In this document: positions 3,373 to 55,115 of the stretch, one piece after another
How the letters are laid out: the number at the start of each line of letters is the position of its first letter
Numbering within the stretch: the first letter of the stretch is position 1
NCBI RefSeq assembly: GCF_004010195.1
Contig: NC_057751.1
Coordinates: forward strand, 12,726,908 to 12,790,907
DNA: 64,000 nt
Origin: Chiloscyllium plagiosum
Taxonomy: Eukaryota
Reading direction: 5' to 3'
Notes under the pieces: model-generated
The model's database searches: none
Told to the model about the DNA's origin: nothing
What the model saw: only the letters and a program-made list of their open reading frames with translations
Made by a program: the position numbers and the translations under genes

Positions 3373-3684
3373 GGAACGTGAGGCTGGTGAATGGGGGCAG
3401 TCCGTGCGCAGGTAGACTGGAGATTCTTCACCAGGGTAGGTGGGGGACTGTGGGTGGTTACAACTGGGACCTGAAGGACGCCGCTGTCGTGTGCCGGGAG
3501 CTGGGCTGCGGGATGGCGCTGTCCGCACCGCGCGGGGCTCACTTTGGAGAGGGCTCGGGTACCGTTGTGACCTCTAATGTTCAGTGCAGTCGAACCGAGT
3601 CTGCTCTGCGGGAGTGTACTTCAAATTCGTGGAGTCACAGAACTGGGTGGTTACACTCTAACGATGCTGGAGTCATCTGCTCAG
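3373..3684 (+). CDS. SRCR receptor exon, SRCR domain 1 (group B, lacks C2 and C7)
   Basis: tttacag acceptor, TCAG|gtaaaa donor, 312 nt; VRLVNGGSPCAGRLEILHQGRWGTVGGYNWD...VVCRELGCG...NDAGVICS. Confidence 0.93.
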
Positions 3685-5036: not shown

Positions 5037-5924
5037 TAAGCAATAATCTTATCTAAGTCTTCAAGATGTTAACAGGAAAAAGAGGACGGATGAAGGTGAA
5101 TTATTTCTGCTGGTTGGCGATATTGAACGAAGGGGATATCTGAAATTTCAGGCCTGACATTCAAGACAAAGGGTGGTGAAAGGTTTTGAGCTCGCTTCCA
5201 CAAGCACCAGTGGATGTTGGATCAGTTGTTACTTTTAAAAGTGTAGTAAAAAAAATGTAAGTCACGGTATTTAGGGATATGTGCCAAAGGCAGGTAAGTG
5301 GAGTTAGACTAGACATCACCCATGATCTCATTGAGTAACATAACAGTCTGCAAGAGTTGAATGGTCAACTTCCTTTCCCATATTCCGGCATTTCAGTCAA
5401 TAAACAGATGTTCAAGATATGAAAACAAAATGCTGCACCAGAAGATCTCATAGTCCCCATTCCCCTGTAATCCAACTCCATTCTACTTTGAAAATGTAAT
5501 TGTTTTATATTTCACGGTGCACTTGCAGTCTTCTCAGGAATTATTATTCCGGAGGAGTGCGGGAACAGAACATTAGAGTGCTCATAGTAACTGAACATTC
5601 TCTAGAATCTATGACACATTGATTTCAATTCATCAGCATTTGACTTGCTCAGTAGCGAATGTGTTGCAGTCAGAATTAATTCCCCAACGCTCAAGTGAAA
5701 GTCAGGAAACACGCAAAATTCTCTTAACAAAAGGTTGAGTGGTGACAAGATTGGAAATTGATAACACCAGAACGTTTCCACGCACTCACACACAATGATT
5801 TAGGCATATCACCCAAGGATAAGCAAACAGAGAAATCGAATTCTTGATGTGATTGTAGAATCTCTCATCACTTATGACTATAACGACATTAAACAATGAA
5901 AGTTTGTTTTAATTCATTTTCCAG

Positions 5925-6179
5925 GAAATGTCAGGCCCAGACTGGTCCCAGAAAGCACGCCCTGTGCCGGGAGGCTGGAGATTCACTGGGATGGAACATG
6001 GAGGACGGTTTGCAAAGATGGGTCCTGGTCCAGAGAGAATGACGAAGTTATTTGTGAGCTGCTGGACTGTGGCTCTGCAGTGACAATACCGTTGACTTCT
6101 CACTTTGGAGCAGGCTCAGGTCCTGTCATTGGGCCACCAGACTGTGGGCACCAGCGGGACATTGAGGTCATCTGTTCAG
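5925..6179 (+). CDS. SRCR receptor exon, SRCR domain 2 (shortened, 85 codons, lacks C5-C6 segment)
   Basis: ttttccag acceptor, TCAG|gtacaa donor, 255 nt open frame: (G)NVRPRLVPESTPCAGRLEIHWDGTWRTVCKDGSWSRENDEVICELLDCGSAVTIPLTSHFGAGSGPVIGPPDCGHQRDIEVICS. Only partly shown by the ORF track. Confidence 0.88.
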
Positions 6180-6478
6180 GTACAAGCTCCAATTGTTGTG
6201 GAAACCTACATGTTGCCTTCATATATTGTACATCCCTTCTTAGGTTGGAAACATGCATTTCTTAATGAAGGAAAGGGGTGCATTTAGACAGCACAGAGTA
6301 TAATATGCAATCACTTTTAAAAGCAGAGATAGACTGTTCCATGTGTAATCATCAATTCATTAGTCTTTTGGCTGACTTGCAAACTTAGAAGTTTATTAAA
6401 ACTTTTTAGTCTATTGATTTGAAGGACAAAACCAACAGGTTTGCCAAATGAAAAATAGAGAGCTCTCACGTTCAGACA

Positions 6479-6783
6479 GAGATTACATTACATTTTTTAG
6501 ATTACATTACAGTGTGGAAACAGGCCCTTCGGCCCAATAAGTCCACACCGACCCGCCGAAGCGCAACCCACCCACACCCCTACATTTATCCCTTCCCTAA
6601 CACTACGGGCAATTTAGCACGGCCAATTCACCTGACCTGCACATCTTTGGACTGTGGGAGGAAACCGGAGCACCCGGAGGAAACCCACGCAGACACGGGG
6701 AGAATGTGCAAATTCCACACAGTCAGTCGCCTGAGGCGGGAATTGAACCCGGGCCTCTGGCGCTGTGAGGCAGCAGTGCTAAC
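6479..6783 (-). mobile_element. HE1/V-SINE-like SINE, slightly 5'-truncated
   Basis: Reverse complement of the 4703-5036 element, roughly 95% identical over ~277 bp by eye. Confidence 0.9.
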
Positions 6784-8177: not shown

Positions 8178-8492
8178 GTCGCAGAGTTCCCCGGCTTGTA
8201 GATGGAGAGTCTCAGTGCTCGGGCAGACTTGAGATGCTTTACGCTGGGAATTGGGAAACAGTGTGTGACCTTCACTGGGATTTGAACAATGCTAATGTGG
8301 TCTGCGCTCAGCTTAACTGTGGAGTCGCCCTGTCCATTCCGACAAGAATTCGTTTCGGGAATGGCACTGGGCCAATACGGAGAAATCGCTTGGAATGTAA
8401 AGGCAGCGAGAAAAGCCTATTGGATTGTCCTCTTTCTCCAGTATCTCAGTACGAATGCACCCACAGAGATGATGTCAGTGTGATCTGTTCTA
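8178..8492 (+). CDS. SRCR receptor exon, SRCR domain 3 (8 Cys)
   Basis: tattcag acceptor, TCTA|gtgagt donor, 315 nt; PRLVDGESQCSGRLEM...WETVCDLHWD...ECTHRDDVSVICS. Confidence 0.93.
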
Positions 8493-10478: not shown

Positions 10479-10793
10479 ATGAAAGGTGGCCACTCAGGTT
10501 GACACATGGTGGAAGTCGGTGTGATGGAAGAGTGGAGATTTACCAGGACGGCAATTGGGGTCAATTACTGGACAAAGGGTGGGACCTGAACGATGCTAAC
10601 GTGGTCTGTAGGCAGTTAGGCTGTGGCGTCGCCATAGCCGCTTACAACTCTTTAAAGTACGGACAACGCGGAGGGACAGTCTGGGCAAATAACATCCAGT
10701 GTAAGGGAAATGAAACGCATCTACGGAACTGCGGCTCAGTCCGGTTGGATTCTCCTGTCCCCGACAGCATTGGCGTAGGGGTCCTGTGTTCAG
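10479..10793 (+). CDS. SRCR receptor exon, SRCR domain 4 (lacks C2 and C7)
   Basis: tcttacag acceptor, TCAG|gtgaat donor, 315 nt; LRLTHGGSRCDGRVEIYQDGNWGQLLDKGWD...GVGVLCS. Confidence 0.93.
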
Positions 10794-11308: not shown

Positions 11309-11623
11309 ATCACATCCAGATAAGGCTGTCCGGAGGTGGAACCAGATGTGCTGGCCGACTGGAGATTTATTATAATGGTACCTGGGGTTCCGTTTGTGAT
11401 GATTCCTGGGATCTGACAGACGCTGGTGTGGTTTGCAGACAGCTGGGTTGTGGAAGGGCCTTGAACAAGACACTTCCTGCTTCTTGTGAACCCAACTCAG
11501 GCCCCATTTGGTTGGATGAGGTGGACTGTTCCGGGAAGGAAGCATTTCTCTGGAAATGTCCCTCAGCATCGTGGAATAATCACGATTGTCACCATAAAGA
11601 AGATGTGACGATCGTATGTTCAG
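11309..11623 (+). CDS. SRCR receptor exon, SRCR domain 5 (8 Cys plus one extra)
   Basis: cctgacag acceptor, TCAG|gtattg donor, 315 nt; IRLSGGGTRCAGRLEIYYNGTWGSVCDDSWD...IWLDEVDCSGKE...HDCHHKEDVTIVCS. Confidence 0.94.
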
Positions 11624-15818: not shown

Positions 15819-16130
15819 AACACAAAGAGCTGAGGCTGGTGAATGGTAAGCATCGCTGCGAGGGGAGAGTGGAAGTGTTCTACAATGGGACCTGGGGAAC
15901 CGTGTGCTCTGAAAATCTGGATGACCACGACGCGCAAGTGATCTGTAAACAGTTAGAGTGCGGCGACCTCGTTTCCCAAGACACTAAGTATTTCGAACAG
16001 GGATCTGGACAAATCTGGTTGGATGAGGTTGAGTGTAATTTCCAAGAGACGACCCTTTGGCAGTGCCAGTCAGAGCCCTGGGGGCAACATAACTGTAATC
16101 ACTTGGAAGATACCGGCGTGATTTGTTCAG
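15819..16130 (+). CDS. SRCR receptor exon, SRCR domain 6 (8 Cys)
   Basis: attaacag acceptor, TCAG|gtaaca donor, 312 nt; ELRLVNGKHRCEGRVEVFYNGTWGTVC...WGQHNCNHLEDTGVICS. Confidence 0.94.
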
Positions 16131-16384
16131 GTAACACAGCAAATCTCTCAAGGGGCAGGGTGGGAGGAGGTGGGGGGGGGGGCGGGGTTTGTCCTTTTAA
16201 ACCTTAACCTTTGACATAGTCAGTTCGTTTATCTTATTCACAGAAATCAACAAAGGCAATAAGCAGCCCGACAGTTCAAATGACTGCAATCAAAGACCAG
16301 GTAATTGCTCTACTTTGTCAGATTGAAGATCTGTCTTGTACTCCTAGCTTCCCCTGTCACATAAAATTGACCTTTTTTTGACAG

Positions 16385-16702
16385 AAGCGGGATTTGATTT
16401 GCGCCTGGTTGGAGGCAATAGCAACTGTACTGGGACTGTGGAGATCTTGTACAACAACACTTGGGGCACAGTGTGTGATGACTCCTGGGATCTGGCTGAT
16501 GCCAGGGTTGTCTGCAGACAACTGGCATGTGGTCCCGCTCTATTGGCCTCAGGAGGAACAACTTTTGCCCAGGCTGACGGTGTCATCTGGCTGGATGAAG
16601 TGAAATGCACGGGAAGTGAATCTTTTCTGTCCGACTGTCCTTCCTTACTCTCAGCTCAGCCTGACTGTGACCATAAGGAAGATGCCCGGGTGATCTGTTC
16701 CG
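16385..16702 (+). CDS. SRCR receptor exon, SRCR domain 7 (8 Cys, membrane proximal)
   Basis: tttttttgacag acceptor, TCCG|gtaggg donor, 318 nt; LRLVGGNSNCTGTVEILYNNTWGTVCDDSWD...DCDHKEDARVICS. Confidence 0.94.
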
Positions 16703-16847: not shown

Positions 16848-16889
16848 AGCCTGATTTGTCACCGAATCCTACCCCGGCCACATCTACAG
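16848..16889 (+). CDS. SRCR receptor exon, Pro/Ser/Thr-rich stalk (E)PDLSPNPTPATST
   Basis: tttcacag acceptor, ACAG|gtattt donor, 42 nt, phase 1-1, mucin-like composition. Confidence 0.85.
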
Positions 16890-17073
16890 GTATTTATAAT
16901 TAAGACTTGCTCCTGTTCCTGTTGGAGTTCTGACTCGTGAGAGTCGTCTTATTGACATAGCCGTACGATTGTTAATTTCAGAAGTTTAGATTAGTTTTAA
17001 ATCGTGTGAAACATTTGACATGTTCAAGGTGGACTATGTCTGTATTAATTGTTTCTGTAACCCTGCCATTTAG

Positions 17074-17190
17074 AACAAGGAGATAAAACCAGTTCCATCC
17101 TTCCTGCTGTTTGCATCACCCTAGCTGCCCTGATACTCTGTGAGTTAATCGCGCTACTGGCTGTAAGACAGAGAAAGTTTAAAATAAAAG
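17074..17190 (+). CDS. SRCR receptor exon, transmembrane segment
   Basis: catttag acceptor, AAAG|gtaagg donor, 117 nt; (E)QGDKTSSILPAVCITLAALILCELIALLAVRQRKFKIK: 23-aa hydrophobic run then basic stop-transfer. Too short for the ORF track. Confidence 0.9.
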
Positions 17191-19315: not shown

Positions 19316-19423
19316 TTGCCCTTTCTGACCACTGGGATTCCACTGCTGGTTTATACCAAGGAATTTATGAAGAGATTGAGAATATTGCAGCGGGCAAGCA
19401 TTCAGCTCAGACACATGGCTCAG
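19316..19423 (+). CDS. SRCR receptor cytoplasmic exon 1 (LYQGIYEEI)
   Basis: Long pyrimidine tract plus ctacag acceptor, TCAG|gtacaa donor, 108 nt; (V)ALSDHWDSTAGLYQGIYEEIENIAAGKHSAQTHGS. Confidence 0.88.
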
Positions 19424-20099
19424 GTACAAAATTCCATCCTTTCACCTCCCAATTTCTGTTGCTCAGTGGTCAATGCACTGATTGGGTACAGTTGGAAGCT
19501 CACCACACCGAGTGAACATCGTCGTGGCCTGTCCTCAGATAACCAGTTTTAAAATGTGCATTGTGCGTCACAATATTTAGGCCAATGACGGTACTCAAAT
19601 CTGTAGATCTTTCAATTCTTTCGGACATAGGGAAGGCTTAGATGGGGAAGGTCAGTCTCGAAACTGAAAGATAAAAGAATCGGAAAAAGGATCCTCTTTG
19701 CAACATTTTGTGACCACACAGCCCTGGTCGGATTGACAGCTAGCTGATTTTTAAAAGACACAGGAGCAAACTCCGTTCACTGACACGATATGAAAAAAAA
19801 ACAGATCAGATATTTTCCTCTGCGCTGAGATAGGAGGTGTTAGCTTTAGCAACGAGCTGTACGGTGTGAGTTGGTGTCAGTTCAATGGTAGGATCGACAG
19901 CGGGTCAACGTTTTGAGCCCAGATGACTTTGCCTATCCTTTGTTGCTCTGACAAAATGATGCAAGCCATCCCTCTTCATACACTGCAACAAATGTTCTGC
20001 CTCAATCGTGTCTGGCCTCAAACTGACGCAGGGACCGGTAAATGGATTCGGTTCCCTTCTCCGAACATCCTAATCACAACTCGCTTTTGTGTTTTACAG

Positions 20100-20210
20100 T
20101 TTCTTCTTCCCGTGACTCACTCAATCACATCGAATATTACACCAGTCAAGGTTTGGGTGAAAATGATCCTGGACCAGCGAATCCTGAAGGAAACTCCTCC
20201 AGTACTCCGG
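20100..20210 (+). CDS. SRCR receptor cytoplasmic exon 2
   Basis: gttttacag acceptor, CCGG|gtttgc donor, 111 nt; (V)SSSRDSLNHIEYYTSQGLGENDPGPANPEGNSSSTP. Confidence 0.8.
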
Positions 20211-20554
20211 GTTTGCATCTTCACAATTTGCAAATATCCTTTTTTATTACATGTATGCTTCACGTTATCTGCTACCAAAAATCAAAAGATAAAGACGTCG
20301 AGCGACACAACGCCATAGAATGGCGCTGCCCAGAACCAGCAGTGCCAGAGAGTGATCTGACTGTTATAATTAATAGCTCGGCTGAATGTATGCACAGCTT
20401 CAGTGATTCAGTGGAATGGGATTTTAAAACTAAGATACGGCCCTCTCATCTCATTAATTTTCCCGCCTTACAAATTCCTCCTAGATTGATACATAATTGT
20501 ACATTGTTTGGTGCGAAGTATTCGTTTTCAATGAAAATCCCTCGTTCATTCTAG

Positions 20555-20686
20555 GTCCGTTTGCAGGCAATTATGATGATATTGAGACTGAAACTAATGA
20601 CACGCGGGACAGTCACTTGCTGCTTGATCCTGGTCCCGAGGATTTTTCCAAACTGAGACCGAGCAGCGGCGACGGCGCCGCTCTGG
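20555..20686 (+). CDS. SRCR receptor cytoplasmic exon 3 (NYDDI, DSHLLL)
   Basis: cattctag acceptor, CTGG|gtgagt donor, 132 nt; (G)PFAGNYDDIETETNDTRDSHLLLDPGPEDFSKLRPSSGDGAAL. Confidence 0.83.
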
Positions 20687-21399
20687 GTGAGTTAACCCTC
20701 AGCAATGTTTGCTAGTGCTGTCTAACAGAATCAACTGTGTGTTTATAGAACATCTACGAGGAACCAACTACACATGTGAGAGTAATTTTAATTACAAAAT
20801 ATTGCAGAAGGGTCCTGGACTTGAAACAGTGTCGTGTCTATTGCGCCCTGTGTATTGCTACCTCTTTAAATTGCAGACACAGCCAGGAGCTTTTCCACAA
20901 ATTTGCACTTCTGAAAGGTGATTGGAGTTCGTGTAATTACAGGGGATGTACGAAGCTGCAATTTCAGTGGAACACCTCTTCCCCGAACAGCAACAAAAAG
21001 ACTTGGTGTCTGAGGATCAGACGTTTCAGCAGTTATAATTCTTGTTGCCTGCTGTAGAGGCACTGTGTAGTTCAAAGGACCAATATAGATCAGTATCTAA
21101 TTGAGAGAGGAGGGAGGCGTGGGCGGAATCTCTGATACCTCAACCGTTTTGCTTTGAGATGAGTGTTTAGCATAACTGAACTCACACCGATTTCTGGAGC
21201 ATGATTCTCGTTGACTCGCACAGAGAAAGTGCCAGGAACGCTTGTCAATAAGAGTCAAACCATCTGATCAGCTGCTCAGGCATGTTTCTGCTTCTCCAAG
21301 GCCAATTGAGCCAAGCATGCTCTCGTATTTCCCTCTCCTTCAACCTTCAACTGGTATCATTCACGATTTTCTGTCCTATCTCCCACAGATTTTCTCTGA

Positions 21400-22690
21400 G
21401 CTCACCTGACCCAGGAGAGCCGCTTCCTGCTCCCTGGACCGGATTTCTATTAAACCAGTTACCACTAAGCTTCCCCATTTCCCACTGTCAACACCCTCTT
21501 CCCGCTGAAAACCTGCCCCAACTCCAGCAGATATTTTTCAGACTTCTTTCACTCTCTCTGAAGGTCTCCGCAGTAATGACTGCGTTCCTCCCAGATTTTC
21601 CCTTCCCCTCACTATCCATGTTATTTCACAACCTTTGACATCCTTTTCCAAGACAAAGACCTGGAATGTTCTGTCACCTCAGAAATGCTTGCCAAACACT
21701 GCACAAAACTGCATATGCATGTCCTATCACTCACGTTTCCATGCTTGCCACACGACTGATCACATCTGCATTCAGAAACACGAAGCTAGTTCGCATTTGC
21801 CAACGAACAGTACCTGAAATTGCCTCAAGACAGTCTCTTTTGGCTCCTCCACTGTTACTAAGTGGTCAGCCTGGGTTTTTATATTCTATGCTAGTAAATC
21901 AGAAGTTTCTTCCTACTCAATACTAGGAATTCTGAAGACCTTTTCTTCACTACCCAATGCATGTTTTATTTTCTGGCTGTGGACACCATTGCTTTCCATT
22001 AAAAGGGTAACCGCAGACATTTCCCAACCGTGATGCCACAGTTGATTGCCATGCTATCTGAAAGAGTAACTGTTGCTTTCTTTGTGACATTGCATGACCC
22101 CACAGTGCACAGCCACAGCTTTGAAATATGTGCCTTTCATTTTTCCAACAAACACTTCGGGAGCCAAAGACATTTCCCTTGAGGTTATTTAAATCTCCCA
22201 TACTCGTCCTGTCACCATTCATCCAACACTGTTGTGTGCTCTGACTTTCACTGGTTCTATTTAAGCACTGGTCATTTTAAAACATTCATCTTTACCTTCA
22301 AAAACCTCCATCTGCTGACGGATCTTGCTCTATAATCGTATCCAGCCCCGCCATGTTCCTTTAAATCTGGCTCATGGAGTAACCTTGATTTTAATTACTG
22401 TATATTTGCTGGTTTTGACCACAGTTACTAAAGCTGTAAATATTGATTCCCCTCCCGAAATGTTTCTGCTTCCTCAGCTTGAATTCTCATTCCGTACACT
22501 ATTCGATTTCCACTTCCAGGAACCTCTTCAGTTTTCTCTTTCTAGATGCTATTTCAAACTTATCTCTCTGAACAAGGTATTGGTCGCACAGCCTATAATC
22601 ACTCTATTGTCTCATTTCCGAATGCTCCTGTGAAACCTTGTCTTATAAGATTAGGTTAACTGTGCTTTATAAATGCAAGTTATTGCTAAG
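21400..22690 (+). mobile_element. Fragmented L2 LINE remnants
   Basis: CSLD-like start (CTGCTCCCTGGACC), SDFHW...FK segment near 22240-22310, and L2-type tail GCTTTATAAATGCAAGTTATTG. Confidence 0.5.
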
Positions 22691-22733
22691 ATTTCTGTAT
22701 AATCAGTAATCTATAATCTGTTTCTCCCCACAG

Positions 22734-22855
22734 AGTACAGTACCCAAAGACGCTTTGATCCCGATTTCCCACTTCCTTCCCGGTTTGGAAACAATGGAAA
22801 TATTCAGCAAGATGTGGTCGCATTTGCAAAGCTTACTGCTGCAGATAGGCAGTGA
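22734..22855 (+). CDS. Probable terminal coding exon of SRCR receptor
   Basis: tgtttctccccacag acceptor; phase-1 frame (E)YSTQRRFDPDFPLPSRFGNNGNIQQDVVAFAKLTAADRQ*, TGA at 22853-22855. Confidence 0.65.
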
Positions 22856-23765: not shown

Positions 23766-24239
23766 ATGCTATATTACTTCGTGTTGAAATAATTGGTTTT
23801 GGTCTATATTTTATTTGAAAGCATTTGTGTTCTGTTGAATTAAAACAGAATTTGTTTTACTTGCAAACACAATTAATTGTCTGTCTAAATAACTACTGCA
23901 AAGTTTGCTCTGCATCAATTCATTTACTCTGTGGTACACATCAAGATCCTGTGTTCCTTAGTGAAAGCCTTGTTGGAATATTATTTCAACGTTTCATTTC
24001 CGATTACAAAAGAATTACAACCTGTTAGAACGATGATTGGTCAGCCTGTTCTTTTGATATTTAGTGTAACTGCTCTCTCCATCACAATGTGCTGAGACTG
24101 CTGCAGACTCAAAATGTAAACGGGGATAATAGATGAAGTTGGGTGTTCCGGAAAAAGTGTATTGATAAAAAGATTTTATTTAGAATTTAAGTCCTTTTTT
24201 GAAGTCAATGTGCATTATGAGCACCTCCATTATAAGAAC

Positions 24240-26343
24240 GGGAAATCACGATCATAATATGGTAGAGTTCAGTCTGCAGTTTGAAAGAGAGAAGGCAAAA
24301 TCGGATGTAATGGTGTTACAGTTAAATAAAAGTAATTATGAGGGCATGAGAGAGGAACTGACGAAAATAGACTGGAAGCAGAGCCTAGCAGGGAAGACAG
24401 TAGAGCAAAAATGGCAAGAGTTTGTGGGTATAATTGAGGACACTGTACAGAGGTTTATCCCCAAGAAAAGAAAGATTATCCGGGNNNNNNNNNNNNNNNN
24501 NNNNNNNNNNNNNNNNNNNNNNNNNNNNNNNNNNNNNNNNNNNNNNNNNNNNNNNNNNNNNNNNNNNNNNNNNNNNNNNNNNNNNNNNNNNNNNNNNNNN
24601 NNNNNNNNNNNNNNNNNNNNNNNNNNNNNNNNNNNNNNNNNNNNNNNNNNNNNNNNNNNNNNNNNNNNNNNNNNNNNNNNNNNNNNNNNNNNNNNNNNNN
24701 NNNNNNNNNNNNNNNNNNNNNNNNNNNNNNNNNNNNNNNNNNNNNNNNNNNNNNNNNNNNNNNNNNNNNNNNNNNNNNNNNNNNNNNNNNNNNNNNNNNN
24801 NNNNNNNNNNNNNNNNNNNNNNNNNNNNNNNNNNNNNNNNNNNNNNNNNNNNNNNNNNNNNNNNNNNNNNNNNNNNNNNNNNNNNNNNNNNNNNNNNNNN
24901 NNNNNNNNNNNNNNNNNNNNNNNNNNNNNNNNNNNNNNNNNNNNNNNNNNNNNNNNNNNNNNNNNNNNNNNNNNNNNNNNNNNNNNNNNNNNNNNNNNNN
25001 NNNNNNNNNNNNNNNNNNNNNNNNNNNNNNNNNNNNNNNNNNNNNNNNNNNNNNNNNNNNNNNNNNNNNNNNNNNNNNNNNNNNNNNNNNNNNNNNNNNN
25101 NNNNNNNNNNNNNNNNNNNNNNNNNNNNNNNNNNNNNNNNNNNNNNNNNNNNNNNNNNNNNNNNNNNNNNNNNNNNNNNNNNNNNNNNNNNNTGCCACAT
25201 GGGAGGCTGCTGAGCAAGGTGAGGGCCCATGGTGTTTGAGGTGAGCTACTGGTATGGATTGAGGATTGACTGTCTGACAGAAGCGGAGAGTTGGGATAAA
25301 AGGTTCTTTTTCGGAATGGCAGCCGGTGACAAGCCGTGTCCCGCAGGGTTCAGTGTTGGTGCCGCAGCTGTTCACATTATATATTCATGATCAGGATGAA
25401 GGGACTGGGGGCATTCTAGCGAAGTTTGCTGATGATACAAAGTTAGGTGGACAGGCAGGTAGTACTGAGGAAGTGAGGAGGCTGCAGAAGGATCTAGACA
25501 GTTTGGAGGAGTGGTCCAGGAAATGGTTGATGGAATTCAATGTGAGCAAATGCGAGGTCTTGCACTTTGGGAAAAAGAATAGAAGCATGGATTACTTTCT
25601 AAACGGTGAAAAAATTCGTAAAGCCAAAGTACAGAGAGATCTGGGAGTGCTAGTTGAGGATTCTATAAAGGTAAACGTGCAGGTTGAGTCCATGATTAAG
25701 AAAGCGAATGCAATGTTGTCAATTATCTCAAGAGGGTTGGAATATAAAAGCACTGTTGTGCTACTGAGACTTTATAAAGCTCTGATTAGGCCCCATTTGG
25801 AGTACTGTGTCCAGTTTTGGTCCCCACACCTCAGGAAGGACATACTGGCACTGGAGCGTGTCCAGCGGAGATTCACACGGATGATCCCTGGAATGGAAGG
25901 TCTAACATATGAGGAATGGCTGAGGATCCTAAGATTATATTCATTGGAGTTTATAAGATTAAGGGGCAATCTAATAGAAACTTACAAGATAATACATGGC
26001 TTGGAGAGGGTGGACGCTAGGAAATTGTTTCCGTTAGGCGAGGAGACTAGTAGCCGTGGACATAGCCTTAGAATTAGAGGGGGTAAATTCAGAACAGAAA
26101 TGCGGAGACATTTCTTCAGCCAGAGAGTGGTGGGCCTGTGGAATTCATTGCCACAGAATGCGGTGGAGGCTGGGACGCTAAATGTCTTCAAGGCAGAAAT
26201 TGATAAATTCTTGATGTCACAAGGAATTAAGGGCTACGGGGAGAATGCGGGTAAGTGGAGTTGAAATGCCCATCAGCCATGATTGAATGGCGGAGTGAAC
26301 TCGATGGGCTGAATGGCCTTACTTCCGCTCCTATGTCTTATGG
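24240..26343 (+). mobile_element. Young 5'-truncated CR1 LINE (end of endonuclease, RT, 3' tail), spanning the assembly gap
   Basis: ORF 25326-26264 (312 aa) with VPQGSVL, KFADDTKL, LEYCVQFWSP; upstream DHNMVEF. Stop at 25237-25239 and a frameshift near 25280 make it defective; tail CCTATGTCTTATG. Confidence 0.95.
24485..25192. other. Assembly gap (708 N)
   Basis: Run of N. Confidence 1.
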
Positions 26344-41467: not shown

Positions 41468-41769
41468 CTATAGCCAGGGATAAAGAATAGTTTATAGAAT
41501 ATGCAATTCTCCACAATAGCCATCCATCCCACAGTGTATCCAAAGTTCATTCCTTCCTTCAGCAATTGGTTGCAGACAGTCCCTCGGATTTTTCTGTGCA
41601 AGACAGAAATGGTTGAGCAAAGTATTTTCAGAGGGAAAAGAAGTGAAAAGGAAGATGAATGAATGGCTCTCAGTTCCAACTGTGACTTTGGAATGAAGTC
41701 TGCTAATAAGAGTGATGCTGTTTCTGTCTGGTGGACTGACCCCTACATTGTAGAGGCTGAGTGCCAACT

Positions 41770-43850
41770 CTGACACACCTCCTCCTATTTATCCACTGGA
41801 CCATGATCCCACCATGGAACATCACACCATTGAGTCCAGTGCAGTCACGAGCCTCAGTTCATTGAGTGACAAACCTCCCCTCCTCCCCACTGCCTCCAAA
41901 CTCATAGTCTCCCAAACCCCCATAGCTTGTTTCTACATCTTTACCAAAACCAACAAAAATGACCACCCAGGCAGACCCATTGTTTCTGCCTGCTCCTGCC
42001 CCACAGAACCCATCTCATCCTACCTCAACTCAATTTTTTCTCGTCTTGCCCAGTCACTTCCCACTTACATCCACAATTCCTCTGATGTTTTTCTTCAGTT
42101 TCACAATTTCCAGTTTGCAGATTCCAGCCAACTCATCTTTGTCATGGATGTGCAATCCTTTTACGTAACTACCCCTATCAGGGTGGTCTCAGGATTCTCT
42201 GCTTCTTCCTGAACTGTCCCCATTCCTTCAGGTCAGAGGAGTGGCCATAGGTACCCACATGGGCCCCAGTTATGGCTGTCTCTATGTCAGCTATGTGAAA
42301 TATTCCTTGCTCCAGTCCAATGCAGGCCCCCACCCACAACTCTTTCTCTGGTACATTGATAATATTTGCGTCTCTCTCTCTTTCATATGGAATTGGAATG
42401 GTTTATCAATTTCATTTCCAGTTTCCACCCCACTCTCACCTTCACCTGGTCCATCTCTATCCCTTCCTCAACATCTCTGTTTCCATTTCTGGGGATAAGC
42501 TAGCCACCAATATCCACTACAAACTAGCTGACTCCCATAGTTATCTTGACTATACATCCTCACACTCTGCTTCCTGTAACAATTCTATTCCAGTCTCCCA
42601 GCTGCTCTGTCTCCATCACATTTGTTCTGATGATGCCAACTTCGGTGTCCACTTTCTTCCTCAACCGAGGATTCCTTAGCACCATAGTTGACAGGGCCCT
42701 CAGCCGGGTCCGACCCATCCCTGTGGCAGTGGATTCCACAGGTCCACCACTCTCTCTGGCTGAAGAAATATCTCCTCATTTCCATTTTAAATTTACCCTC
42801 TCTAATTTTAAGGCTGTGCCCACGAGTCCCAGTATCCCCACCTGACAGAAACAATTTCCCAGAGTCCACCCTTTCTAAACCATGCATTATCTTGTAAGTT
42901 TCTATTAGATTTCCCCTCAACCTTCTGAACTCTAATGAATACAATCCCAGGATTCTCAGCTGTTCATTGTATACTAGGCTTACCATTCCAGGGATCATCC
43001 TTGTGAATCTCCGCTGGACATGCTCCAGTACCAGTATGTCCTTCATGAGGTACGGGGTCCAAACTGGACACAGTATTCTAAATGGGGCCTAACCAGAGCT
43101 TTATAAAGTCTCAGTAGCACATCACTGTTTTTACATTCCACTCTTCTTGAAATAAACAACAACATTACATTTGCTTTCTTAACCATGGACTCAACTTGCA
43201 AGTCAACCTTTACAAACTCCTGTACTAACACTCCCAGATCCCTTTGTACTTTGGTTTTATGAATCTTCCCAGCATTTATAAAATAGTCCATGCTTGTGTT
43301 TTGTTTCCCAAAGTGCAAGACCTCGCATTTGCTCACATTGAATTTCCACAGTCTCAGGCTTGCTGCAGTGCTCCAGTGAAACTCAGCACAAGCTGGAAGT
43401 ACAGCACCTCATTTTTCTGCTTGGGATCTCTGCAAACTTCCTGACTCAATACTGAGTTCAATAGGGCTTGAGGCCCCTTCTCCCTCAACCTGACCTAACC
43501 TCAACCCCAACACACTTGGCCTTGTTATCATATAGTCCACTATTACACACAACCATTTTTAGCCATGAATAACACCCATTGGTAGATGTTCATTCTCCTT
43601 AGCTGACCATTACCTGCTCCTTTGTCTGTCCAGCTGTTCTTCTCTCTCACTGTGTTTTATCCTCACCAATCACTTACTCCTTACCTTCTTCCTTTATCCT
43701 ATCTTTTGCATTAAAAAACATCTCTTTCCAAGCTACCATCAGTTCTAAGGAAACGTAAATGGAGTCAAAACATTAGCTAATTTCTCTCCATAGATGTGGC
43801 CAGACCTGCTGAGCTTTTCCAGCAATTTCTTTGTTTGTTCCTGTTTCACC
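41770..43850 (+). mobile_element. Degenerate Penelope-like element (RT at 41770-42720; GIY-YIG end and terminal repeat at 43350-43850)
   Basis: PGRPIVSACSCPTE, MDVQSFY, GVAIGTHMGPSYGCL, WYIDNI, YKLADSHSYLDY; after the CR1 block, LLQCSSETQHKLEVQHLIF. Confidence 0.88.
42721..43345 (-). mobile_element. Internal CR1 fragment, truncated at both ends, embedded in the Penelope element
   Basis: Minus ORFs 43043-43336 and 42585-43046 closely match the young CR1 at ~25535-26156; the CR1 3' terminal ~190 bp is absent. Confidence 0.92.
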
Positions 43851-53360: not shown

Positions 53361-53699
53361 ATTTCACAATCACTACATTTTTCATGGTATATTTTGAATT
53401 GTAATCTAACGCCTTCAGGCATGAATGATATAAGATTGTAACAAACTCAAATTTTATGGCCCAGAGAACACTGTTTGAGTGTGAAGCAGGAAGTGAACAT
53501 CTGTAATTTACCTGATGCAGGAGGATGAGGTATGCCAGCCCTGCCTGACTTATACACATTACTAAAGTAATTAGACCTGGAAATTGTGGCAGTATTCTTC
53601 CTCAGACTTGTGTGTGAGGTCAGTAAGCACAGTTAGTCTCCAGTGGGATCAAGCTGCATGAACAAGCTGAAACTTGACCAAGCCCTGATGTCTGCTCAC

Positions 53700-55115
53700 T
53701 GCACCCGGGTGGCTCCCAGCGACACCTGCCTCTTTGTCAGCTATATCGAACAGTCCCTCTTCAGTACCTACACAGGCACTGTACCCCAACTCTTCTGCCG
53801 TTACATTGATGACTGCATCAGTGCAGCGTCCTGTACCCTGGCTGAACTGGAGCAGTTCATTGACTTTGTCCACAACTTCCACCCCGCCCTCAAATTTACT
53901 TGGTCCATCTCAGCTACCTCCCTCCCCTTTCTTGACCTCTCAATTTCCATGTCTGGCCGCAGTCTCCAGACGGATGTCTGCTACAAACCTACAGACTCCC
54001 ATAACTACCTGGACTACACCTCCTCCTATCCTGCAAGAACTCCATCCCATTTTCCAGTTCCTCTGCCTCCGCTGCATCTGCTCGAACAAGGAGACATATC
54101 ACCCGCGAGCATCCCAGATGTCCACCTATTTTGAACAATGTGCTTTTTCTCTCTCCGCCATCCAGACAGCCCTCTGCCACACCACTACCATTCCCCACTC
54201 CACTGCTCTAAACCCCACCCCTCCCAATGCAATAAAGACAGAGTCCCCGTTGTCCTCACTTGCCCACCCAATCTCCGCATCCAACGCATCCTCCTCAAAC
54301 ACTTCCGCCAACTCCAACTAAACCCCACCACCAAGAACACCTTCCCATCCCCACCCTTCTCTGTCTTCTGCAAGGACCGCTCACTCTGACAGCCCTTGTT
54401 TCATGCCACCTCCGTCACCGAACTCCAGGTTCCTTCCCCTGCAACCAGAAAGGATGCAAAAACCTGGTGATGCAAAAACCTGGTACACCACCTTCCTCAC
54501 CTACATCCAGAGCCCCAAACAGTCCTTTCTCACCTGCCTCTCCTCCAACTTAGTTTACTGCATCAGGTGCTCCCGATGTGATCTTCTCTGCATCGGGGAG
54601 ACTGAATGTAAACTTAGGGAATGGTTCACTGAGCATCTCATCTTGGTCTGCAGGGCCCGACCAGATTTTCCAGATGCTGCACATTTCAATTCTCCCAACC
54701 ACTCCATTTCCGACATGACCATCTTTGGCCTCCTCCATTGCCAAAACAAACCACAGCTCCTTTTGGAGGAACAGCATCTTATTTTCTGCCTGGGCACCCT
54801 ACAACCCACAGGATTCAACATTGAGCTCTCCAATTTCAAATAACCTCCCTTCCCATCCACCGATCCCCTTTCCAGCCCCTCCCCCTCCCTTCCACTCCTC
54901 CCTGCCACCAACTGCATTCATTCCTCCTATTAACCAACCAGGTCGTACCCTCTACCTGTCTTCACCTATCCCTATTTCACCATCCTGCCCCCACCACCCC
55001 CTTTATCTGCAGTTCCCCCCCAGACCCACCCCCAGTCCTGAAGAAGGGTTACATCCAAAACATTGGCTTCTCCTGATGCTGCCTGGCTTGCTGTGTTCTT
55101 CCAGCCTCCTGCCTA
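53700..55115 (+). mobile_element. 5'-truncated Penelope-like element (RT, GIY-YIG endonuclease, terminal repeat)
   Basis: FCRYIDDCI, LPFLDL, YKPTDSHNYLDY (RT); SSNLVYCIRCSRCDLLCIGETECKLREWFTEH...GFN (GIY-YIG); frameshifts; 16-bp tandem duplication near 54453-54484. Confidence 0.92.

Follow-up and report, generated by a model that had tools for sequence, protein, structure and literature searches.

A short SRCR domain without the C5–C6 pair is an ancient, spliced-in subtype of cartilaginous fishes

Can an SRCR domain dispense with one of its disulfide pairs and still be a folded, selected part of a receptor? The question is raised by a 255 nt exon in a 64,000 nt stretch of the Chiloscyllium plagiosum genome (the window), which contains the seven SRCR exons of a single plus-strand gene. 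A first-pass annotation, made from the letters alone, had read this exon as a selected, folded variant from which the C5–C6 loop was removed. Here we show that the short domain is a real, ancient and spliced-in SRCR subtype of cartilaginous fishes, the role of which we infer. With a probability of roughly 0.6, we favour the following account: an 84-residue SRCR domain without C5–C6, present throughout the chondrichthyans as part of a seven-domain membrane receptor, is predicted to fold and likely serves as a compact, calcium-free spacer.

The organisation of the gene was obtained by mapping the protein model P0002 (named in its source as Chiloscyllium plagiosum DMBT1-like) back to the DNA. The model comprises a signal peptide, D1 to D6, a linker with one Cys, D7, a stalk, a membrane-spanning segment and a cytoplasmic tail containing the motifs YEEI and YDDI. 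It is identical to the exon over its whole length (100%); it is probably a model of the window's own locus and hence no independent support. The features are as follows.

L034:7467-7514, upstream of the window: exon with the likely start codon
2678-2710, plus strand: 33-nt exon that ends the signal peptide
3373-3684, plus strand: D1, SRCR exon without C2 and C7, of the type that is sister to the short domains, which it precedes
5925-6179, plus strand: D2, short (mini) SRCR exon of 255 nt, six Cys (C1 to C4, C7, C8), C5–C6 segment missing
6119-6145, plus strand: deletion junction GPVIGPPDC; G65, P66, G69, C73 and H75 invariant among 19 distinct short domains
8178-8492, plus strand: D3, eight-Cys SRCR exon
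10479-10793, plus strand: D4, SRCR exon without C2 and C7
11309-11623, plus strand: D5, SRCR exon in which every cation-site motif is present, alongside a ninth Cys
15819-16130, plus strand: D6, eight-Cys SRCR exon
16244-16300, plus strand: 57-nt interdomain exon with one Cys, between D6 and D7
16385-16702, plus strand: D7, eight-Cys SRCR exon
16848-17190, plus strand: stalk exon (about 16848-16889) and transmembrane exon (about 17074-17190)
19316-22855, plus strand: four cytoplasmic exons, at about 19316-19423 (YEEI), 20100-20210, 20555-20686 (YDDI) and 22734-22855 (stop)

The models P0002, P0003 and P0006 begin with an unrelated N-terminal piece (L034:7332-7514), which we take to resemble a fragment of a GPCR; the true start is likely Met127 of P0002, some 2.5 kb before the window.

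The six other SRCR exons measure 312, 315, 315, 315, 312 and 318 nt, and the difference in length on which the first-pass annotation rested is borne out. So are the open frame and the canonical splice sites: the exon is preceded by AG, followed by GTACAA and in phase 1 at both ends, with no stop, and its translation passes, as had been read, from GSGPVIGPP directly to DCGHQRDIEVICS. The product is 84 residues long (trimmed short domains are 81–83), with Cys at positions 13, 29, 43, 48, 73 and 83 corresponding to C1 to C4, C7 and C8. Aligned with the neighbouring domains, D2 has lost 21 residues, the span from C4 to C8 being 35 residues against a modal 56; one residue added after C2 brings the net change to 20. 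The pair C5/C6 is indeed gone, but the picture of an excised loop needs amendment, for the loss extends to the WLDxV strand and to some residues past C6. The pairing that had been assumed (C1–C4, C2–C7, C3–C8, C5–C6) agrees with the sections of PMC2906472 drawn on here, as does the statement that the usual six-Cys variants lose C2 and C7, of which D1 and D4 of the same gene are examples. Because the C4–C8 span is 53–57 residues in 75 of the 76 SRCR exons parsed at other loci of the genome (the 76th is a mis-parse that does hold C5 and C6; 11 of 87 SRCR hits were left unparsed), and because the junction matches a single place in the genome, the short span of D2 is not due to chance. A split exon or intron gain at D2 was excluded, the DNA being contiguous.

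By sequence D2 is an SRCR domain, scoring 53.1 bits against a curated Pfam cut-off of 26.1, although the match covers only profile positions 4–61 of 100. Group B SRCR domains are encoded by one exon each, and D2 shares this feature together with the positions of C1–C4, C2–C7 and C3–C8 seen in CD163, DMBT1/SALSA, CD5L and CD6. It departs from the canonical group B domain (100–110 residues, eight Cys including C5–C6) in both length and Cys count. Group A domains lack C1 and C4, and have six Cys with C5–C6 kept; D2 is the opposite, with C1 and C4 present and C5 and C6 gone. Group A domains and the group B domains left with six Cys by the loss of C2/C7 (CD163A domain 8, CD163c-alpha domain 5) likewise have three disulfide pairs, but these are of full length and keep C5–C6. 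The sections of PMC10855680 drawn on define, besides groups A and B, a seven-Cys group C. Those of PMC2906472 list losses of C2/C7 and odd losses, none a clean deletion of C5 and C6, and contain no mention of sharks. We found no description of a short SRCR domain without C5–C6 in the literature searched (subscription journals and supplements lay outside the search).

An exon may be open and correctly bounded and nevertheless be constitutively skipped, a prospect that the first-pass annotation had raised. Assembled contigs with spliced D1–D2–D3 joins show otherwise. In run X16 (organism B; RNA by guess) contigs carry the end of D1 before the exon and D3 after it, and an unspliced piece is present at lower depth; in run X3 (organism A; run type unrecorded) one contig takes in only 5922-6181 of this region before continuing into the start of D3. 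The exon is thus spliced between D1 and D3; what these contigs establish is inclusion, not its share. All 21 sampled words of the exon occur in 13 of the 24 runs listed, each of them from organism A and together from four studies (six of these 13 are possibly the source of the assembly), and several organism A samples had a full or 95% word share; no run listed as containing the words is on record as RNA. A single-cell RNA run placed no reads, at a sampling of 2% of that one run. That the exon is an assembly error or a private allele we regard as vanishingly improbable: the perfect match to P0002 probably reflects the same locus and is not independent, but eight other named species carry the junction, and DNA of organism C reads through the exon with seven substitutions but neither insertion nor deletion within it (the flanks have three).

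The deletion is far from private to this animal. The junction is found in nine named species of shark, ray and chimaera: besides Chiloscyllium plagiosum, these are Chiloscyllium punctatum, Stegostoma, Rhincodon, Mustelus, two Scyliorhinus species, the sawfish Pristis and the chimaera Callorhinchus, so that carpet sharks, catsharks, a houndshark, a sawfish and a chimaera are represented. Complete short domains number 20, taken from the window and 14 stored proteins (partial domains left out), and every one has a C4–C8 span of 35 residues, while pairwise identity falls as low as 41%. Searching 1.84 billion representatives for the junction gave 16 hits, of which eight hold it, all chondrichthyan; the other eight do not. 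Although the search saw cluster representatives only, it suggests that the short domain is likely restricted to cartilaginous fishes. The proteins examined from Hemiscyllium, Mobula and Heterodontus, which look like paralogues, had no short domain; nor was one seen in a search of solved structures (31 sequences; the three alignments displayed have the gap). Long SRCR proteins dominated among the 120 of 2,701 matches listed in a homologue search with D2–D4, and the ESM Atlas returned generic SRCR clusters only. Two tilapia models (P0051, P0107) each have one SRCR domain without C5/C6, and an eel model (P0147) has one such domain among many near-identical repeats, all with other junctions; these may be model errors or independent losses.

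Short domains also occur in tandem, with two in Pristis and three in Callorhinchus P0158. The latter consists of a signal peptide, an SRCR domain without C2/C7, three short SRCR domains, an Ig-like domain (scoring below the Pfam cut-off), a membrane segment and a short tail. Wherever a model shows the preceding domain, the short domain or run of short domains follows a D1-type domain without C2/C7; the exception is the first copy in P0001, whose model begins just before that copy. Some models are missing a neighbouring domain, as P0128 does the D3 type.

A quick tree was built from 146 rows and 61 columns ending before the junction. The 19 short domains on it require a single change, a value as low as which was reached in none of 500 shuffles. 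Branch support for all short domains jointly is 32, compared with 90 for the chimaera subgroup and 92 for the elasmobranch subgroup; short and D1-type domains group together with an SH-aLRT of 92. The tree thus hints at a single origin, and the identical junction length points to one deletion event. We suggest that an ancestor of D1 was duplicated in tandem, after which one copy would have lost C2–C7 and the other C5–C6, and that the latter deletion preceded the split of chimaeras and elasmobranchs. This split dates to approximately 400 million years ago. The variant proposed in the first-pass annotation is thus real and, being shared by sharks, sawfish and chimaera, older than was thought; to that reading, which our results support, are added its age, the tandem copies in other types of gene and, as described below, the likely loss of the cation-binding face.

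Across these lineages the framework of the domain has been retained. When changes are counted on a tree of the distinct short domains (19), two fall in the six Cys columns, where the average column has 3.13 (P = 0.00072); 18 of 82 columns are invariant, including G65, P66, G69 and H75 at the junction. A Cys is lost in two of 20 copies (C3 to Tyr in P0003, C2 to Trp in P0152). In the Rhincodon model P0003, where part of D4 is also missing, several Cys are gone (C3 in the short domain, C5 in the D5 type); decay or a sequence error may account for this. In Scyliorhinus canicula both short domains (P0136, residues 103-186 and 1085-1168) have gained two Cys five residues apart, in a predicted hairpin, and so have eight Cys again, by a different route.

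The rest of the domain changes rapidly. Identity of D2 between shark orders is 59–66%, much like D1 and among the lowest of the domains. Between close relatives, five of five and six of seven exon changes alter the protein (jointly seven of eight changed sites), and the amino-acid-changing rate is statistically indistinguishable from that of the intron (P = 0.09 and 1.0). When all changes are counted, the exon is better conserved than the intron in organism B, with 5 changed positions of 255 against 20 of 325 (P = 0.014), but organism C shows no such difference (P = 0.68). Evolution at the neutral rate had been named in advance as evidence against a selected variant: over deep time the Cys, core and junction are conserved, which goes against it, whereas among close relatives the rate cannot be told from that of the introns. 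Taken together, conservation of the Cys and junction and fast change among relatives indicate that positions of the fold are constrained and that the surface is loose or diversifying.

Whether the shortened chain can adopt the family fold was addressed by prediction. From an alignment of nine short domains, which is too shallow, AlphaFold2 gave a pLDDT of 54 and no fold match. With 79 full-length paralogues of the genome the pLDDT rose to 88 (85–88 over five models; pTM 0.77), with a helix at 36–45 and a pLDDT of 89 across the junction. Foldseek returned 51 matches at E ≤ 0.001, those listed being all SRCR proteins. The model superimposes on CD5L with a Z of 12.2 and 1.4 Å, on CD163 and DMBT1 with a Z of 11 and about 2 Å, and on DMBT1 SRCR8 over 82 of 84 residues (1.9 Å, Z 11.1); overall, the predicted sheet-plus-helix fold resembles group B domains with Z of 10.6–12.2 and rmsd of 1.4–2.0 Å, though D2 has 84 residues to their approximately 104, no C5–C6 segment, and cation-site residues deleted or replaced. 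SRCR domains of shorter or altered fold occur in CD5 domain III, TMPRSS2, enteropeptidase and factor I (aligned chain spans of 94–105 residues), but these are 16–25% identical, match with a Z of 7–8 and are at least 10 residues longer than D2. Because the full-length alignment leans the prediction towards the family fold, the model shows that the gap can close rather than that it does. D2 is accordingly predicted, and not more than predicted, to fold as an SRCR core with three disulfides. The claim of a selected, folded variant, as opposed to decay, is strengthened by this prediction and by the conserved Cys; the rate among close relatives does not add to it.

What the deletion removes from the surface can be stated more directly. 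According to the sections of PMC7043408 drawn on, DMBT1 SRCR8 holds cations at site 1 (S1021, V1060, D1023, D1026), site 2 (D1019, D1020, E1086), disruption of which abolished binding, and site 3 (D1020, D1058, D1059, N1081); in CD163, on the portion of PMC11685794 used, such sites serve ligand binding and oligomerisation. We mapped the sites by Cys spacing on the stored DMBT1 homologue P0025. D1058, D1059 and V1060 fall inside the deleted segment, and with them goes the Asp pair of site 3. Among 19 short domains D1019 is kept in none, D1023 in one, E1086 in one and D1020 in 12; the corresponding figures for 37 full domains are 26, 31, 18 and 18, the sites being missing in many full domains too. 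D2 itself does not have the DMBT1-type set of acidic ligands of sites 1–3. N1081 is replaced by Asp in 12 of the 19 and, with D1020, leaves some acidic surface. Since the segment is deleted and the other ligands are mostly replaced, the usual calcium-bridged ligand face has likely been lost from the short domain.

The role that we consider likely is that of a spacer. The short domain would be a stable, compact module, free of calcium, which spaces and orients the fast-changing distal D1. The C2–C7 and C3–C8 bonds would pin the short Gly–Pro junction and so make the loop dispensable; selection would hold the fold and let the surface drift; and the number of copies, from one to three, would set the reach.

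An alternative is that this ancient folded subtype is an active, calcium-independent recognition module, in which the lost loop exposes a surface that binds microbial or host ligands under diversifying selection. We hold this to be possible but on the unlikely side. In most ortholog pairs no domain changes faster than D1 and D2 (87% and 90% identity between P0002 and P0006, compared with 94–98% for D3–D7), the distal domain of WC1 carries most of its diversity (PMC2906472, in the sections drawn on), tandem copies might raise avidity, and both Scyliorhinus canicula copies gained their new Cys pair in the hairpin. Against this, no conserved surface patch stood out, the invariant columns being mostly Cys, Gly and core residues, and the seven of eight amino-acid-changing sites do not exceed the neutral share (P = 0.69). 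A bolder proposal, which we think doubtful, would make the short domain a structural class of SRCR in its own right, found solely in cartilaginous fishes and predating the split of chimaeras and sharks, with a minimal three-disulfide fold and a new calcium-independent surface in place of calcium-bridged binding; paired with its D1-type sister, which lost C2–C7, it would make up a conserved recognition head of two domains, used by WC1-like receptors and by the chimaera SRCR-plus-Ig receptor. It is also conceivable, but improbable, that the domain is the remnant of an in-frame deletion, a partly folded linker tolerated and kept only because it holds the frame for D3–D7 and the tail. The near-neutral amino-acid rate among close relatives, the unpaired Cys in two of 20 copies and the poor model from short domains alone would fit such a relic; holding the frame, however, explains neither the 18 invariant columns and the conservation of the Cys, nor the fixed 35-residue span and the repeated duplication.

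The receptor that carries the short domain resembles WC1 and CD163c-alpha (SCART) as a type I membrane protein with tandem SRCR domains and a YEEI-type tail motif. The YEEI at position 956 of P0002, which also has a transmembrane segment, fits the motif Y-(Q/E)-(D/C/E)-(I/L) that WC1 and CD163c-alpha have in common (section 10 of PMC2906472, on the text drawn on here), and by this analogy the whole receptor likely signals as they do. Counting from the membrane, the fourth domain has six Cys both in the shark gene and in the SCART1 model P0095. Expression on gamma-delta T cells is a further trait of the WC1/CD163c-alpha family. The shark tail is only weakly similar to the tetrapod proteins, however, and no short domain was present among the tetrapod members examined. 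In a comparison by pairwise scores with the lettered domains, of which the family has a diagnostic order (a, or m/l/n, then d-e-d'), the conserved d-like domains were favoured whatever the query.

A natural SRCR domain that likely lacks a cation-binding face, kept in all three main chondrichthyan lineages, marks a minimal SRCR core and provides a ready test of SRCR function in the absence of that face. Its junction is, in addition, a sequence marker for the chondrichthyan branch of CD163/WC1-like receptors, which databases label just DMBT1-like.

Elsewhere in the genome many SRCR exons lie in each of five clusters (C13, C44, C32, C47 and C28); C44 includes paralogues with a complete set of domains, and the stretches of it that were examined contain no short domain. 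Within the window, a run of N occupies 24485-25192, a stretch after the short exon (6500-6700) is presumably a SINE-like repeat, and we take 24184-26261, 41754-43088 and 53637-54840 to be reverse-transcriptase-like fragments. Besides the single Cys in the linker between D6 and D7 (16244-16300), a ninth Cys is present in the D5 type (11309-11623) in the window gene, Stegostoma and Scyliorhinus, and in the D7 type in Mustelus and the paralogues P0125, P0127, P0129 and P0138; each gene seen has its ninth Cys in one type or the other. Linker Cys and ninth Cys may form an interdomain disulfide that has changed partner. The long linker of CD163 contains a disulfide of its own (PMC11685794, in the portion used).
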